A stretch of 64,000 nt of DNA, taken from NCBI GenBank assembly GCA_028713575.1, contig JAQTOB010000001.1, positions 27,619 through 91,618 of the forward strand. The letters are read 5' to 3'. A model generated the notes under the pieces. The model did no database searches. It worked only from the letters and a program-made list of their open reading frames with translations, and had not been told where the DNA came from. Both the position numbers and the translations under genes were made by a program. Origin of the DNA: Patescibacteria group bacterium. Lineage in GTDB: Bacteria; Patescibacteriota; Patescibacteriia; UBA2591; UBA6264. Shown in pieces: positions 1 through 23,691 of the stretch. Numbering within the stretch: the stretch's first letter is position 1; each line of letters starts with the position of its first letter.

Positions 1-2378
1 TGGCCTTAAAAGAATTTATTGATATGGGAATCATCGTCGTTGCCGTTCTAATTAACGCCAGCGTCGGATTTATCCAGGAATACAAAGCGGAAAAAACATT
101 CAATCATCTAAAAAAAATGGTTAATCATTCCGCCCGAGTATTAAGAACCCAAAACAATAAGCAAGAAGAACATATTATCAATAGTCAAGAAATTGTTCCC
201 GGAGATATTATTATTATTGAAGCAGGCGACATTGTCCCAGCCGACGCTCGCCTAATTGAATCCTGTAATTTAGAAGCGGTTGAATCGATTTTAACCGGTG
301 AATCAACCCCTTCAAGCAAAACAACTGATACTTTAAATCAAGGAGCCCCTCTGGCTGACAGGGAAAATATGGTTTATTCCGGAACCACCATTACTCGAGG
401 AAAAGCACGAGCTGTCGTAATTGCTACAGGAATAAAGACAGAATTGGGCAAAATTGCCAGCATGATTAAAAATACCGAAAATGATCAAACGCCTCTTCAA
501 AAAAAAATTGACCGTTTATCCAAAATAATCGGCTCAATTATTGCTGTTCTTTGTTTAGGTCTTTTTATTATCGGCTTAATCTTAGGTCGTCCGTTTCTTG
601 AAATTCTCCTCATTTCCGTAGCCGTGGCCGTCGCCGGCGTTCCCGAAGGACTGGTCATTGCCGTCACCATCTGTTTGGCCGTCGGCATGCAAAGAATCTT
701 AAAAAAGAAAGCTTTAACTAGAAAATTAGTCGCAGCAGAAACTCTTGGCTCTACTACAATAATTTGTTCTGATAAAACAGGAACTTTAACTGAAGGGAAA
801 ATGACAATCGCTCAAATTATTCCTTATAAAACAGAATCTCAAGAATTGCTGAAAGCCGGACTGCTCTGCAATAACGTGGTTATAGAAAACGAAAACGATG
901 ATTTAAAAAATTGGAAAATTACCGGAGATACAACAGAGATTGCCTTATTTCAAGGAGCAATTCAAGCCGGACTGAATAGAAAAGAATTATGGAAAAAATA
1001 TCCGCGAATTAATGAAATTCCTTTTGATTCTGAAAACATGTATATGGTTACACATCATCAAGCCCCGGACAAAAAGAAAAATATTTTATTGATTAAGGGC
1101 GCGCCAGAAAAAATTTTAAATTTAATTTCACTCTCAAGTGAAAAAAAAGAACAAATAAAAAAACAATTTGAAAAATTAACTATTAAGGGTTTAAGGATTT
1201 TGGGTTTTGCTCAAAAAACATTAAACAATAAAATTACTTTAATTGATGACGACTTAAAAAATATGAATTTTCTCGGTTTAATTGCCCTTAAAGATCCCTT
1301 GCGAGCAGAAGCTAAAGAAACCATTAATGATTGTAAGATGGCGGGTATTAGACCAATTATTCTTACCGGCGATCATCAATTAACCGCTAAAACCATTGGT
1401 CAAGAAATTGGTTTGATTAAATCAAATGGTGCTATTCTTCGGGGAGAGGATTTGGACAAACTTTCAGATAAAGAACTTGGTGAAAAAATAAAAAAAATAA
1501 ATGTTTTCGCCCGAGTTGAACCAAAACACAAAATTAGAATTGTTGATATTTTACAAAATCAAGGAGAAGTGGTCGCCATGACCGGAGACGGCGTTAATGA
1601 TGCGCCGGCCATTAAATCAGCCGATGTCGGCATAGCTTTGGGCTCTGGCTCAGAAGTAACCAAAGAAACTGCTGACGTGATTTTACTTGATGATAATTTT
1701 AAAACTATTGTTGAAATAGTAAAAACTGGTCGGAATATTTTTGACAATATTAAAAAAGTTGTTCTTTTCTTGTTTAGCGGAACTTTTACTGAATTTCTTC
1801 TTATTGGTGGACCGTTGCTCTTTGGCTTCCCGTTGCCTGTGTTAGCTGGACAAATTCTTTGGATTAATATTATTGAAGACACTTTGCCAGCCATGGCCTT
1901 ATCTTATGAAAAAGAAAATAAAGAGGTCTTGAAAGAAAGGCCACGCGGTCATCATCATGAAATCTTGGACAAGGAAATGAAATTTTTAATTTTTATTGTC
2001 GGGATTGCCACTGACTTAATTTTGTTAGCTCTTTTTGTCTATCTTTATAAAATCAATTTTGAACTGACACATATCAGAACAATAATTTTCGTTGGCTTGG
2101 GAATTGACACCCTGTTTTATGTTTTTTCCTGTAAAAATTTAAAAAAATCAATTTGGAAATATAATCCTTTTGACAATCTCTTTCTCAATATCAGTGTACT
2201 TATTGGTTGGTTAATGCTTTTAATTGCTGTTTATATCCCATTTTTTCAAAAAATTCTTAAATTAACACCGCTTTACTGGAATGATTGGTTGCTCTTAATT
2301 AGTTTAGGTTTGATTGAAATTATATTGGTAGAAATTGGTAAAATTTTTTTCATCCATCATCGTTTTAAAAAAATATGA
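1..2378 (+). CDS. P-type cation-transporting ATPase; the N-terminus lies upstream of the window and the reading frame is open back to base 3
   Basis: DKTGTLT phosphorylation motif and a TGDGVNDAPAIK hinge motif, with many TM helices. The first residues of the ORF already form a TM segment, so the protein is 5'-truncated by the window edge. Confidence 0.85.
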   Translation, partial: ALKEFIDMGIIVVAVLINASVGFIQEYKAEKTFNHLKKMVNHSARVLRTQNNKQEEHIINSQEIVPGDIIIIEAGDIVPADARLIESCNLEAVESILTGESTPSSKTTDTLNQGAPLADRENMVYSGTTITRGKARAVVIATGIKTELGKIASMIKNTENDQTPLQKKIDRLSKIIGSIIAVLCLGLFIIGLILGRPFLEILLISVAVAVAGVPEGLVIAVTICLAVGMQRILKKKALTRKLVAAETLGSTTIICSDKTGTLTEGKMTIAQIIPYKTESQELLKAGLLCNNVVIENENDDLKNWKITGDTTEIALFQGAIQAGLNRKELWKKYPRINEIPFDSENMYMVTHHQAPDKKKNILLIKGAPEKILNLISLSSEKKEQIKKQFEKLTIKGLRILGFAQKTLNNKITLIDDDLKNMNFLGLIALKDPLRAEAKETINDCKMAGIRPIILTGDHQLTAKTIGQEIGLIKSNGAILRGEDLDKLSDKELGEKIKKINVFARVEPKHKIRIVDILQNQGEVVAMTGDGVNDAPAIKSADVGIALGSGSEVTKETADVILLDDNFKTIVEIVKTGRNIFDNIKKVVLFLFSGTFTEFLLIGGPLLFGFPLPVLAGQILWINIIEDTLPAMALSYEKENKEVLKERPRGHHHEILDKEMKFLIFIVGIATDLILLALFVYLYKINFELTHIRTIIFVGLGIDTLFYVFSCKNLKKSIWKYNPFDNLFLNISVLIGWLMLLIAVYIPFFQKILKLTPLYWNDWLLLISLGLIEIILVEIGKIFFIHHRFKKI

Positions 2379-22859: not shown

Positions 22860-23090
22860 TTATTCAATGTTTAATTTTTCTTTAATTTTTGACAAATCAA
22901 AGCCTAAAATCATTTCTCCATCAATTTCTGTAACCGGCACAGCCATTTGTCCGGTTTTTTTGATAAAATCATCTATCATCTCTTGGTTTTTGCTTAAATC
23001 AATCTCTTCAAATTCAATTTTTTTTTCTTTTAAAAAATCCTTTAATTGATGACAATAAAGGCACGCCGGAGACGTATATACTTTTATCTT
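22860..23090 (-). CDS. glutaredoxin/NrdH-like thioredoxin-fold protein
   Basis: MKIKVYTSPACLYCHQLKDFL...; CxxC active site, about 76 aa. Confidence 0.6.
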   Translation of the reverse strand, partial: KIKVYTSPACLYCHQLKDFLKEKKIEFEEIDLSKNQEMIDDFIKKTGQMAVPVTEIDGEMILGFDLSKIKEKLNIE

Positions 23091-23166
23091 CATATAATTT
23101 TTGATTAACAAATAATATGTTATTTTATCATCTTATCATCTTCCTGAGTTTTTGTCAAAATAAAAA

Positions 23167-23238
23167 TAGCCCCGAGGAGAATCGAACTCCTGTTACCAGG
23201 ATGAAAACCTGGTGTCCTAACCACTAGACGACGGGGCC
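23167..23238 (-). tRNA. tRNA-Glu (anticodon UUC), intact
   Basis: The minus strand reads GGCCCCG TC GTCT...CCAGG TTTTCAT CCTGG TAAC AGGAG TTCGATT CTCCT CGGGGCT A, a full cloverleaf. Confidence 0.85.
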
Positions 23239-23244
23239 TTAATA

Positions 23245-23499
23245 TTATTTCAAATTGAATCCTAACTTATTAAGCAAATTTTTTCTTTCTTGATAATATT
23301 TTTTTAACCTTATTTCCCTTTTCCTTGCTTCTGATTTACTATCATACTCCTCCCTATACATCATAATAAACGGTCTTCTGTTTTTATTGGATTTTGTTTT
23401 GCCGGCGTTATGCTCTTTTAATCTTTTTCCAATGTCATCAGTCATACCAATATAATAACCTGAATCCTTTAAACTTTTTAGGATATATAAATAATACAT
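23245..23499 (-). CDS. small free-standing GIY-YIG nuclease
   Basis: MYYLYILKSLKDSGYYIGMTDDIGKRLKEHNAG...; the GIY..YIG...R..H/N motif lies in an 84-aa protein. The tracked ORF 23245..23589 extends spuriously into tRNA-derived and GC-rich insert sequence. Confidence 0.75.
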   Translation of the reverse strand: MYYLYILKSLKDSGYYIGMTDDIGKRLKEHNAGKTKSNKNRRPFIMMYREEYDSKSEARKREIRLKKYYQERKNLLNKLGFNLK

Positions 23500-23500
23500 A

Positions 23501-23603
23501 CTCCTGTTACCAGGATGCCCGCCAGGGGCAGCCTGTCCGCCTACTGGCGGAGGTCCGCCTTTGGCGGAAAAACCTGGTGTCCTAACCACTAGACGACGGG
23601 GCC
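23501..23603 (-). pseudogene. duplicated 5' two-thirds of tRNA-Glu interrupted by a ~50-bp GC-rich insertion
   Basis: Identical to the intact copy from the acceptor 5' end through the variable region (GGCCCCGTCGTCTAGTGGTTAGGACACCAGGTTTT ... CATCCTGGTAACAGGAG). The T-arm and 3' acceptor are missing. The insert 23518..23567 begins CCCGCC and ends GGCGG. Confidence 0.6.
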
Positions 23604-23691
23604 AAAAATAAGAATCATTCTAACAGTTAAATATTCTAACATTTTAACAGAATTTGTCAAAGTAAAAAAATCTGTTAAAATAAGCATTGCT

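Follow-up and report, generated by a model that had tools for sequence, protein, structure and literature searches.

A minimal GIY-YIG nuclease gene lodged in a Patescibacteria tRNA-Glu gene, one of a large family of putatively selfish tRNA-associated cassettes

Described systems closest to the locus

The Seg proteins of T4-like phages, which are about 200 aa or more in length and carry a C-terminal DNA-binding domain, cut a defined sequence. One of them, the GIY-YIG enzyme SegB of T4, is encoded within a tRNA gene cluster and its flanking tRNA sequence is co-inherited (PMC2330249), and a further report credits SegB with driving segmental amplification (PMC13096335). Here we describe a locus from an uncultured Patescibacteria genome, contained in a 64-kb stretch of DNA (the window, by which we mean the whole of that stretch). 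It resembles these free-standing enzymes of “intronless homing” in that a nuclease gene stands free among or inside tRNA genes and is present in some related genomes and absent from others. Tandem units of a partial tRNA copy (stub) and an ORF, seen in its relatives, also recall the reported SegB-driven amplification (PMC13096335). Unlike the phage Seg genes, the cassette is hosted by a cellular genome, its 84-aa protein resembles Slx1/UPF0213, and its target gene, partly duplicated, bears palindromic hairpin modules.

In size and single-domain build the protein is like the UPF0213/COG2827 (YhbQ-type) proteins, and its best sequence matches are EF2693 and BH0048. Slx1 possesses a C-terminal RING/zinc domain and has Slx4 as its partner, whereas the cassette has neither. 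Partial tRNA duplications are typical of integrase-mediated islands, and with such tRNA-targeting integrative elements (phage and island att sites) the cassette shares insertion in a tRNA gene, a partial duplicate and a functional tRNA that is kept. It differs from them in having no integrase and a length of a few hundred bp, in duplicating the 5' part of the tRNA (in the clade of the window), and in that this duplicated part is riddled with hairpin inserts.

Paquin et al. are said to have described, in 1994, a mobile GIY-YIG ORF linked to Allomyces atp6 that brought along part of its target gene when it moved, the part that it displaced staying in place. The GC clusters, double-hairpin and repetitive hairpin elements of fungal and sponge mitochondria are short, GC-rich sequences in AT-rich genomes that insert in intergenic regions and in structured RNA genes (PMC4478555, PMC2800124). 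The hairpins of the cassette are likewise short, GC-rich and double, and lie in structured RNA genes of an AT-rich genome; however, they are confined to tRNA pieces, hold a fixed position, have TCC...GGA ends, and are unrelated in sequence and bacterial rather than organellar in setting when compared with the mitochondrial and Allomyces elements. Within the same phylum, insertions in CPR rRNA genes that are not introns encode GIY-YIG proteins, often at stem-loop tips; that study deals with rRNA only, never mentions tRNA, and treats its GIY-YIG ORFs as sparse and not part of homing (PMC11270868). The cassette family also occupies structured-RNA genes, one relative (L057) even lying inside a 23S rRNA gene, but the tRNA cassettes, unlike these insertions, need and have a duplicated intact gene. 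In the open-access literature we found neither small GIY-YIG genes described from within bacterial tRNA genes nor a report of UPF0213 genes in such a position.

The tRNA-Glu locus and its nuclease

All features of the locus lie on the minus strand, in the order sigma-70-like promoter, tRNA-Glu positions 1-35, a 51-nt hairpin block, tRNA positions 36-53, an 84-aa ORF, 6 nt and a complete tRNA-Glu(UUC). The complete tRNA gene (23167..23238; found by Aragorn, and by Rfam at 65.4 bits) is joined to the native downstream flank and is identical in sequence to the tRNA-Glu of an empty site in a relative (L093, see below). The stub (23569..23603) is joined to the native upstream flank, as seen by alignment with empty sites, and comprises the acceptor 5' strand, the D-arm, the anticodon stem 5' strand and the loop through anticodon base 35. 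Between anticodon bases 35 and 36 stands the GC-rich hairpin module (23518..23568; 75% GC), which reads TCCGCCAAAGGCGGACCTCCGCCAGTAGGCGGACAGGCTGCCCCTGGCGGG on the minus strand. It is followed by positions 36-53 (23500..23517), that is the end of the anticodon loop, the anticodon stem 3' strand, the variable region and the T-stem 5' strand, which abut the ATG of the ORF directly. Both parts of this second copy are 100% identical to the intact gene, yet the copy lacks the 3' strands of the T-arm and acceptor, with no positions 54-72 following the stub. The boundaries of stub and insert were read by eye and confirmed through the 35|36 position in relatives and the alignment with empty sites. The first-pass annotation had proposed an intact minus-strand tRNA-Glu, an adjacent nuclease ORF, a partial second copy, and a GC-rich insert of about 50 bp splitting the anticodon, and all of these are borne out.

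Some 30 nt upstream of the stub is a promoter-like sequence, TTGACA-16 nt-(TG)TAGAAT (23633..23660), with 11/12 matches and an extended -10. Since the homologous TTGACAAATTC stands directly upstream of an uninterrupted tRNA-Glu in two empty sites (L098 and L093), we take it to be the native tRNA-Glu promoter. It is the sole strong promoter of the locus; a weak, 9/12 match overlaps the 3' end of the ORF. The cassette is flanked by tsaD and a glutaredoxin gene, its extra DNA amounts to about 365 bp holding only the 84-aa ORF, and no tyrosine or serine recombinase gene was found within or beside it in the window.

The ORF (23245..23499; ATG at 23499, stop at 23245-23247) is separated from the complete tRNA by a spacer that we read as 23239..23244. 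Mechanical ORF calling yields 114 aa from a GTG at 23589, as does the public annotation, and both forms cross tRNA debris. Because most close homologues are about 84 aa long and start with MYY, the N-terminal extension is regarded as spurious, in agreement with an earlier suspicion that the ORF track had fused debris onto the nuclease. The GIY-YIG identity first proposed from the motif also stood up, the 84-aa protein matching PF01541 over residues 1-71 with E=3e-16 and a score of 59.9 bits, the cut-off being 22.6. An AF2 model (pLDDT 94.7) with elements E2-9, E15-20, H23-31, H36-41, E44-52 and H55-67 fits the beta-beta-alpha-alpha-beta-alpha GIY-YIG fold with its conserved Tyr, Tyr, Arg, His and Glu. 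The catalytic-type residues do not vary: all 29 homologues compared share Y5, G18, R26, H30, N31 and E62, with Y16 conserved to at least 90%.

Among PDB sequences the matches were EF2693 (1YWL, E=1.8e-9) and BH0048 (1ZG2, E=8e-9), and Foldseek returned BH0048 (1ZG2) first and then the Slx1 nuclease domain (TM 0.64-0.69, 25-31% identity), with the I-TevI catalytic domain as a marginal match (E=0.28). These nearest relatives in sequence and fold, together with a single domain of the expected size, place the protein in the UPF0213/Slx1-like class. It has no C-terminal RING/zinc-finger domain of the kind found in Slx1 orthologues, ending at residue 84 right after the catalytic domain, and it has neither the linker nor the DNA-binding domain of the I-TevI/Seg/Mob architecture. 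Searches of PADLOC, PHROGs and NCBIfam gave motif-level or sub-threshold matches only (e.g. the group I intron endonuclease model TIGR01453 at 16 bits against a cut-off of 56) and no known defence system or named family. The protein is thus best described as a bare catalytic domain of Slx1/UPF0213 type, a predicted GIY-YIG nuclease. It is not an I-TevI-type homing endonuclease, since it consists of the catalytic domain without a DNA-binding domain, and the label “homing-endonuclease type” of the first-pass annotation has to be dropped in its I-TevI/Seg sense.

Empty sites, related cassettes and the hairpin module

In the closest relative (L098, TsaD 78% identical) the sequences on either side of the site can be aligned with those around the window cassette, and between them lie an uninterrupted tRNA-Glu and no ORF. 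Two further syntenic relatives (L093 and L095) possess the promoter, an uninterrupted tRNA-Glu and the downstream flank, and neither ORF nor stub. The site is filled in the window, in L097 and in L002, empty in the three relatives just named, and reduced to a remnant in L089, which has no ORF and a degenerate, hairpin-bearing 3' tRNA piece that we read as a sign of past occupancy. Presence and absence at one conserved site, as looked for in a homing endonuclease gene, were therefore found among close relatives, and all short words of the empty site also occur in the filled one. That the locus is an insertion relative to the empty sites is well supported by these sequence comparisons, and the earlier proposal of an insertion holds to this extent. 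A single metagenome scan with a flank specific to the window recovered one filled allele of the same species and no empty one. Part of the cassette's distribution is vertical, given that the lineage of the window and L002 share synteny and a variant with three hairpins.

To assemble the loci of relatives we used an alignment of 9 protein sequences, the broad alignment of 29 being too diverse; the family as a whole numbers 7311 cluster representatives at E<=1e-3. Out of 78 protein relatives 59 abut a tRNA gene on the same strand, in the order stub-ORF-tRNA in 39 and tRNA-ORF-stub in 20. At least 15 isotypes are represented (Glu, Gln, Ala, Ser, Pro, Asp, His, Asn, Arg, Met, Lys, Thr, Val, Leu and Trp), and the same layout stands beside many tRNA genes in dozens of other bacteria, belonging to the Patescibacteria and several other phyla, e.g. 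Bacteroidota and Ignavibacteria. Protein clades track tRNA type, and in one clade the ORFs are throughout enclosed by the inverted repeat CCCCCACACC/GGTGTGGGGG. A partial copy of the abutting tRNA is mostly present at the opposite end of the ORF, and the partial duplication that the first-pass annotation had noted around this one nuclease gene proves to be a signature of the family. The stub always matches the local tRNA; its junction with the ORF falls at about position 43, 44 or 53 depending on lineage, and the tRNA retained in leaders extends from positions 1-22 up to 1-53. It is well supported, from the loci compared, that the layout is family-wide and the window cassette one of a large cassette family.

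Other relatives depart from the simple layout. Three (L005, L009 and L011) have tandem stub-ORF units, and two (L010 and L037) have arrays of hairpin-bearing 3' pieces downstream of tRNAs. In L019 and L032 the ORF and its tRNA lie inside a different, older tRNA-Glu, since the outer 5' and 3' acceptor strands pair with each other and not with the central intact tRNA. Tandem units, remnants and nesting in a different resident tRNA show that the cassettes turn over. A large serine recombinase gene is found just downstream of tRNA-Glu in L008/L013, and no relatives were found on viral contigs.

The hairpin module of the window is built from hairpin 1 (TCCGCC-AAA-GGCGGA), a further hairpin in the middle and hairpin 2 (CTGCC-CCT-GGCGG). 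The 50-nt stretch highest in GC in the entire window overlaps it (76% versus 33.4% overall), and its sequence occurs once there (0 expected by chance), with no further copy even when 3 mismatches are allowed and no target-site duplication at its ends. No fewer than 20 independent tRNA-Glu cassettes have a quasi-palindromic double hairpin, TCCGCC-N3-GGCGGA (x2), seated exactly at 35|36, as do all tRNA-Glu-linked relatives with an intact leader. Among 14 distinct variants 96% of cells are paired and 11 of 17 pairs show compensatory change, a result equalled by none of 500 shuffles. All 29 inserts that we mapped lie in D, anticodon or T arms or loops (66% GC versus 42% for the loci), and the 150 nt upstream of the ORFs hold GC-rich hairpins at about 5-fold the density of sequence over 300 nt distant. 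These comparisons, made at the level of sequence, show the module to be integral to the cassette and its structure to be conserved. They run against the first-pass suggestion that the insert is a separate MITE that later struck a dead copy: the same double hairpin with compensatory stems occupies the same site in relatives, and the insert is not dispersed in the window. The insert is palindromic, but it is present as a single copy in the 64 kb searched, has no target duplication and keeps a position that is fixed across relatives.

What varies between strains is only a 21-nt sub-unit of the window's block, CTCCGCCAGTAGGCGGACAGG (23532..23552), which the near-identical allele L097 lacks and L002, though more distant, has. 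In an alignment of about 505 nt the window and L097 differ by one substitution and this 21-nt indel (with one adjacent substitution), and are otherwise 99.8% identical, so that hairpin units are dynamic, but as part of the cassette system. The module is near-perfectly palindromic with complementary loops as well, and this conserved structure and symmetry could equally reflect a regulatory role beneficial to the host. In L019 the outer tRNA pieces each have an internally consistent anticodon stem, which argues against the module simply marking the ends of the element; candidate insertion points are 35|36 or about positions 48-53.

Competing explanations and significance

We consider it somewhat more probable than otherwise that the locus is a small selfish nuclease cassette in a tRNA-Glu(UUC) gene, spreading by break-stimulated copying directed by tRNA homology and transcribed from the tRNA promoter. 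We infer the mechanism as follows. The nuclease would break structured DNA, for which the candidates are cloverleaf or hairpin DNA formed by a tRNA gene under heavy transcription and the palindromic module itself. Repair would then copy the cassette, with the tRNA sequences flanking the ORF serving as portable homology arms; in this proposal the arms also account for the fidelity of each protein clade to a single tRNA type. The module is carried in the anticodon loop of the relic 5' portion of tRNA-Glu, the complete tRNA-Glu would keep the host supplied, and ORF and tRNA may form one transcript from the tRNA promoter from which RNase P frees the tRNA. The hairpin inserts might break up direct repeats that would otherwise delete the ORF, and alternatively or additionally may act as a nuclease site or immunity element. 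Several points count against a selfish cassette: without a DNA-binding domain the protein would have no evident means of finding tRNA genes, a nuclease that cuts tRNA genes would also face the intact copy lying only 6 nt past the end of its ORF, the empty sites could reflect loss through recombination between repeats rather than absence of gain, and the lack of relatives on viral contigs leaves it without a known vector. More tentatively, and as a rather unlikely specific form, the TCC...GGA double hairpins and the stubs may be the substrate of an 84-aa enzyme that cuts hairpin, cruciform or cloverleaf DNA, be it that of its own module or of a tRNA gene extruded while heavily transcribed, with the attached tRNA directing the copying. 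The notion of an RNA guide, with the stub as guide and the hairpins as scaffold, was set aside, as a protein of this size is too small for it and the module is palindromic, loops included, a symmetry that points to DNA rather than RNA.

A classical homing endonuclease would recognise a specific sequence in empty tRNA-Glu genes, cut it and be copied in by double-strand-break repair, the module destroying the site in the stub. Same-site presence and absence among relatives, protein clades each specific for one tRNA type, the module in the loop of those tRNA-Glu cassette stubs examined that retain the anticodon arm, weak motif-level matches to phage homing-endonuclease families and the precedent of T4 SegB in its tRNA gene cluster (PMC2330249) all speak for it. 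We nevertheless judge it unlikely, because 84 aa amount to a catalytic domain without the linker and DNA-binding domain that give I-TevI and Seg enzymes their specificity, I-TevI is a marginal match (E=0.28) next to Slx1 (TM 0.65-0.69), and the carrier would not be immune, as an uninterrupted presumed target identical to the empty-site tRNA adjoins the gene. Somewhat further from what we observe is an ancient and immobile host operon, in which a tRNA-like, hairpin-bearing regulatory leader heads a transcript shared by tRNA-Glu and an Slx1-like repair nuclease with a housekeeping role. Conserved stems with compensatory changes, stubs that in many lineages have stayed identical to the local tRNA, the synteny common to the window and L002 and a single promoter upstream of the stub would fit such an operon. 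The closest relatives, however, have neither ORF nor leader at the same site, the ORF family occurs beside at least 15 isotypes and in either of two opposite layouts, as well as inside a 23S gene and flanked by inverted repeats, and tandem and nested copies exist. Leaders are moreover very variable in tRNA extent, hairpin-bearing 3' pieces downstream of tRNAs cannot be leaders, and an RNA element would not require near-perfect palindromy that extends to complementary loops, all of which makes a stable operon quite unlikely.

It is very unlikely that the ORF is a passive passenger, captured by duplication, by ectopic recombination or by an integrase acting in trans, its nuclease activity being irrelevant to its spread. 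This explanation starts from tRNA genes being recombination hot spots, and can point to a partial duplication resembling that of integrase-mediated islands and to the serine recombinase gene of L008/L013. Yet the window cassette, between tsaD and the glutaredoxin gene, has no recombinase gene in or beside it and adds only some 365 bp, its clade duplicates the 5' part of the tRNA rather than the usual 3' att segment, and the cargo is always one nuclease family across phyla and tRNA types. Hardly credible, finally, is the block as a small tRNA intron, of group I or bulge-helix-bulge type, the upstream copy then being a functional tRNA-Glu gene, or a portion of one, that is split or contains an intron. 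The block does lie in the anticodon loop and leaves the D-arm and anticodon stem able to fold around it, and its position matches the 35/36 site reported for group I introns in Patescibacteria tRNAs (PMC13011429). However, the upstream copy lacks the 3' strands of T-arm and acceptor, blocks of 30-51 nt are far too short for a group I ribozyme, none of at least 25 hairpin-bearing copies is full-length, and an ordinary tRNA-Glu is always adjacent. Aragorn and Rfam show neither a tRNA nor a group I intron on the stub; the intron was rejected, as Rfam at E<=1 finds the intact tRNA only and the second exon is incomplete.

The recurrence of this layout points to a widespread, putatively selfish DNA element. 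It offers a possible function for UPF0213/COG2827 proteins, and explains recurrent annotation errors such as N-terminal extensions through tRNA debris (the 114-aa public entry) and stray tRNA fragments, while the strain-level gain or loss of the 21-nt hairpin unit gives a handle on the origin of GC-rich palindromes in AT-rich genomes. If the enzyme does cut structured DNA, the cassettes would form a new class of prokaryotic mobile element, structure-recognising and homology-targeted with neither transposase nor integrase, and hairpin units of about 20 nt would rank among the smallest self-propagating DNA modules known. Should the selfish cassette be the true reading, targeting by a GIY-YIG enzyme made of the catalytic domain alone would become testable, and the essential tRNA genes of the genome-reduced Patescibacteria, and of Bacteroidota, Ignavibacteria and others, would be a habitat for minimal nuclease cassettes that survive by carrying or regenerating a working tRNA.

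Architecture and occupancy of the tRNA-Glu locus

Read along the minus strand, the locus opens with a sigma-70-like promoter recovered by promoter scan (TTGACA-16-TAGAAT, 23660..23633), the one strong promoter at the cassette, which lies upstream of a tRNA-Glu stub. As read from the sequence, the stub comprises tRNA positions 1-35 (23603..23569), a 51-nt block between anticodon bases 35 and 36 (23568..23518), and positions 36-53 (23517..23500). It is followed by an 84-aa ORF starting at ATG (23499..23245), which a search against PF01541 identified as GIY-YIG (E=3e-16), and, after a 6-nt spacer, by a complete tRNA-Glu(UUC) (23238..23167; Aragorn, and Rfam at 65.4 bits). Together these results confirm the layout proposed in the first-pass annotation, namely an intact tRNA-Glu, a GIY-YIG ORF and a split partial copy. 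By the name under which its protein is publicly listed, the window belongs to Patescibacteria. Its GC content is 33.4%, and its GC-richest 50-nt stretch (76%) falls in the region overlapping the 51-nt block, which occurs only once in the 64 kb. No intrinsic terminator was predicted after the window's intact tRNA-Glu; directly past it on the minus strand lies a second good promoter-like site (TTGACA-17-TAAGAT, 23130..23158) that presumably serves the glutaredoxin-like gene at 22860..23111.

Both the mechanical ORF call and the public annotation (window 23245..23589, minus strand, starting at a GTG within the tRNA stub) give a 114-aa protein that reads through tRNA debris, whereas close homologues are mostly about 84 aa and start at MYY, bearing out the earlier suspicion of a fake N-terminus. 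Many representatives of the wider family carry N-terminal extensions of 20-70 aa that probably repeat this start-codon error, and their number suggests a systematic fault of gene calling.

To place the cassette among its relatives, genomes were ordered by the identity of TsaD, the protein encoded next to it. At the site of the closest relative (locus L098, TsaD 78% identical) we found a homologous promoter, one uninterrupted tRNA-Glu and a homologous downstream flank, with neither ORF nor stub; both outer sides of the window cassette align with the flanks of this site. Empty tRNA-Glu sites are likewise present in L093/L094 (TsaD 67%), where the tRNA-Glu is identical to that of the window, and in L095/L096 (TsaD 64%). 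The pair L089/L090 (TsaD 71%) also has no ORF, and carries a degenerate hairpin-bearing 3' tRNA-Glu piece after the intact gene. Filled examples at the same syntenic site are L001-L004 (TsaD 64%, GIY-YIG 74%) and L097, an allele of the same species as the window that comes from an independent metagenome. Within this one syntenic neighbourhood, then, occupancy is patchy, and gain cannot be polarised from loss case by case. That the window locus is an insertion of a family-typical cassette we hold with high confidence. In L097 (1..640, minus-strand reading; JGI contig Ga0265294_10273181) the interruption of the GIY-YIG ORF falls about 18 nt short of its stop; by eye, the intruding sequence resembles an oppositely oriented transposase gene of the IS30 family, and the contig ends within it, short of the tRNA side.

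Family layouts and turnover

A scan taking one genome per species yielded 80 loci encoding relatives of the protein, and layouts were counted in the 78 whose ORF reaches 60 aa or more. A same-strand tRNA gene adjoins the ORF in 59 of these 78, in the order stub-ORF-tRNA at 39 loci, where the tRNA either begins a few nt past the stop or shares the ORF's final 10-22 nt, and in the order tRNA-ORF-stub at 20; in most cases a partial copy of the adjoining tRNA lies on the ORF's other side. The tRNAs involved include Glu, Gln, Ala, Ser, Pro, Asp, His, Asn, Arg, Met, Lys, Thr, Val, Leu and Trp. Within the limited resolution that so short a protein allows a neighbour-joining tree, protein clades track tRNA type: the four Ala(GGC) loci all fall in a single clade, groups are also seen for Gln, Ser and Asn, and Glu accounts for three clades. 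The wider family numbers 7311 representatives at 50% identity with E<=1e-3, and 548 with E<=1e-10.

Some relatives lie elsewhere. In L057 (1..2260) the nuclease ORF (1501..1761) sits within a 23S rRNA gene followed by 5S rRNA, which ties the tRNA cassettes to the GIY-YIG-bearing rRNA insertions of CPR bacteria. A non-tRNA clade of about ten ORFs (L025, L031, L035, L038, L039, L040, L050, L051, L068, L069 and L022) is enclosed by an inverted repeat, CCCCCACACC...GGTGTGGGGG, with CCCCCACACCT preceding the ATG by about 30-50 nt and AGGTGTGGGGG following the stop at a distance of about 10 nt; L040 and L035 hold additional ORF-less copies of this hairpin. At L008/L013 a large serine recombinase gene (L008 3431..4771, minus strand) lies immediately downstream of the cassette tRNA-Glu, and may represent an independent element that shares this tRNA site.

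Although the stub in every case agrees with the tRNA of its own locus, its junction with the ORF shifts from lineage to lineage (about position 43, 44 or 53), a combination not expected from a single ancient insertion. In L019 and L032 the ORF is preceded by a 5' piece and the intact tRNA is followed by a 3' piece; the acceptor strands of these outer pieces pair perfectly with each other but mismatch the central tRNA (1/7 in L019, 3/7 in L032), and thus ORF and tRNA are nested in a different, older tRNA-Glu. L005 is set apart from L006 by a second stub-ORF unit in tandem, the stub of which is recombinant between the old stub and the intact gene; tandem units likewise occur in L009 and L011. 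In L010, L037 and L002 the intact tRNA is followed by a hairpin-bearing 3' piece and trailer, present in one to several repeats. In L010 (1905..2301) and L037 (1856..2158) these are tandem arrays with periods of 146 and 126 nt, each unit comprising tRNA from about position 18 or 30 up to 35, a double hairpin, positions 36-73 and a trailer with a terminator; the last L010 unit has an additional GC-rich hairpin in its T-loop.

The GC-rich hairpin module

All tRNA-Glu cassettes with a recognisable anticodon arm have two adjacent hairpins exactly at 35|36, of the form TCCGCC-N3-GGCGGA / (T/C)CCGCC-N3-GGCGG(A/G). The stems are kept by compensatory change (TCCACC/GGTGGA, TCCTCC/GGAGGA, TCCCGC/GCGGGA, TCACGC/GCGTGA): across 14 distinct sequences 96.2% of cells pair and 11 of 17 pairs show double changes; none of 500 shuffles attains this, and slid controls do not exceed 51%. 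The first-pass annotation was right about the insertion and the GIY-YIG domain; its reading of the GC-rich insert as a separate MITE-like element is at odds with this fixed position and covariation, by which the block is an integral module of the cassette.

The module comes close to being palindromic. Of 15 variants, 14 have only purines in the first loop and 12 have only pyrimidines in the second, and three loop pairs are exactly complementary. The L014 version is perfectly palindromic over its 30 nt, with GGA|TCC at the centre, and other stub inserts are perfect palindromes too, including TCCCGATGTACATCGGGA and TCCCGGACGTCCGGGA at other loci. An identical 20-nt example, CCTGCCTGCCGGCAGGCAGG, occupies the D-loop of a tRNA-Glu stub in L017 (~1440..1460) and of a tRNA-His stub in L066 (~1455..1475), two different genomes. 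Palindromy reaching into the loops suggests a role at the DNA rather than the RNA level, perhaps as a dimer site, cruciform or hairpin. In other clades the D- and T-loops hold double TCC...GGA hairpins with long loops. The 29 mappable inserts all fall in arms or loops (D 16, anticodon 10, T 3) and average 66% GC vs 42% for their loci, and the density of GC-rich hairpins within the 150 nt preceding the ORFs is about 5 times that at distances above 300 nt.

To the standard module the window block adds a third hairpin unit of 21 nt. L097, 99.8% identical to the window over about 505 nt, lacks exactly this unit, which recurs in the distant L002; hairpin units are therefore the fastest-changing part of the locus, and only within the cassette system.

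Predicted nuclease and mode of spread

A confident AlphaFold model of the 84-aa protein (pLDDT 94.7) has GIY-YIG topology, with Y5, G18, R26, H30, N31 and E62 invariant in 29 homologues. Among solved structures it is closest in sequence to the UPF0213 proteins EF2693 and BH0048, and its best fold matches are BH0048 and then the nuclease domain of Slx1 (TM 0.64-0.69), the I-TevI catalytic domain being marginal (E=0.28). Curated NCBIfam, defence and phage families gave no match beyond the motif. The protein is too short to house a DNA-binding domain, and is best described as a Slx1-like bare catalytic domain with a predicted nuclease role.

We propose, with moderate to low confidence in the whole, that the native tRNA promoter drives a single transcript of stub, ORF and tRNA, from which the normal processing enzymes would cut out the tRNA. 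Spread would follow a nuclease-made break, with repair copying the cassette and the tRNA stretches to either side of the ORF acting as homology arms. Such copying would explain clade fidelity to one tRNA type, regeneration of the tRNA, and the tandem and nested forms. Under a simple model of cutting the empty allele the cassette would have no immunity, since its gene is adjoined by an intact tRNA identical to that of the empty site. Structure recognition is an attractive guess because the protein has no DNA-binding domain and Slx1 is a branched-DNA nuclease, and it fits the location of inserts and junctions in loops and stem-loop tips. Candidate substrates are a tRNA or rRNA gene under heavy transcription, with its DNA in cloverleaf or hairpin form, or else the palindromic module that the cassette itself carries. 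One role of the hairpins may be to break up direct repeats (1-12, 13-35, 36-43) that would lead to deletion of the ORF if left whole; they may in addition serve as the site of the nuclease, or render the stub uncuttable.

A study of CPR rRNA insertions reports GIY-YIG ORFs in non-intron insertions, considers them sparse and outside homing, and makes no mention of tRNA (PMC11270868). Patescibacterial group I introns occupy 35/36 in tRNA-Asn and tRNA-Asp, in a study mentioning neither GIY-YIG nor tRNA-Glu (PMC13011429), and the site they have in common with the hairpin module may be a coincidence. The nearest analogues are T4 SegB, tRNA-site integrative islands and mitochondrial GC-cluster or double-hairpin elements, although each differs from the cassette in a defining feature. 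Among open-access papers we found no description of small GIY-YIG genes lodged in bacterial tRNA genes. The window locus belongs to a variant of selfish nuclease cassette that is widespread and apparently undescribed.
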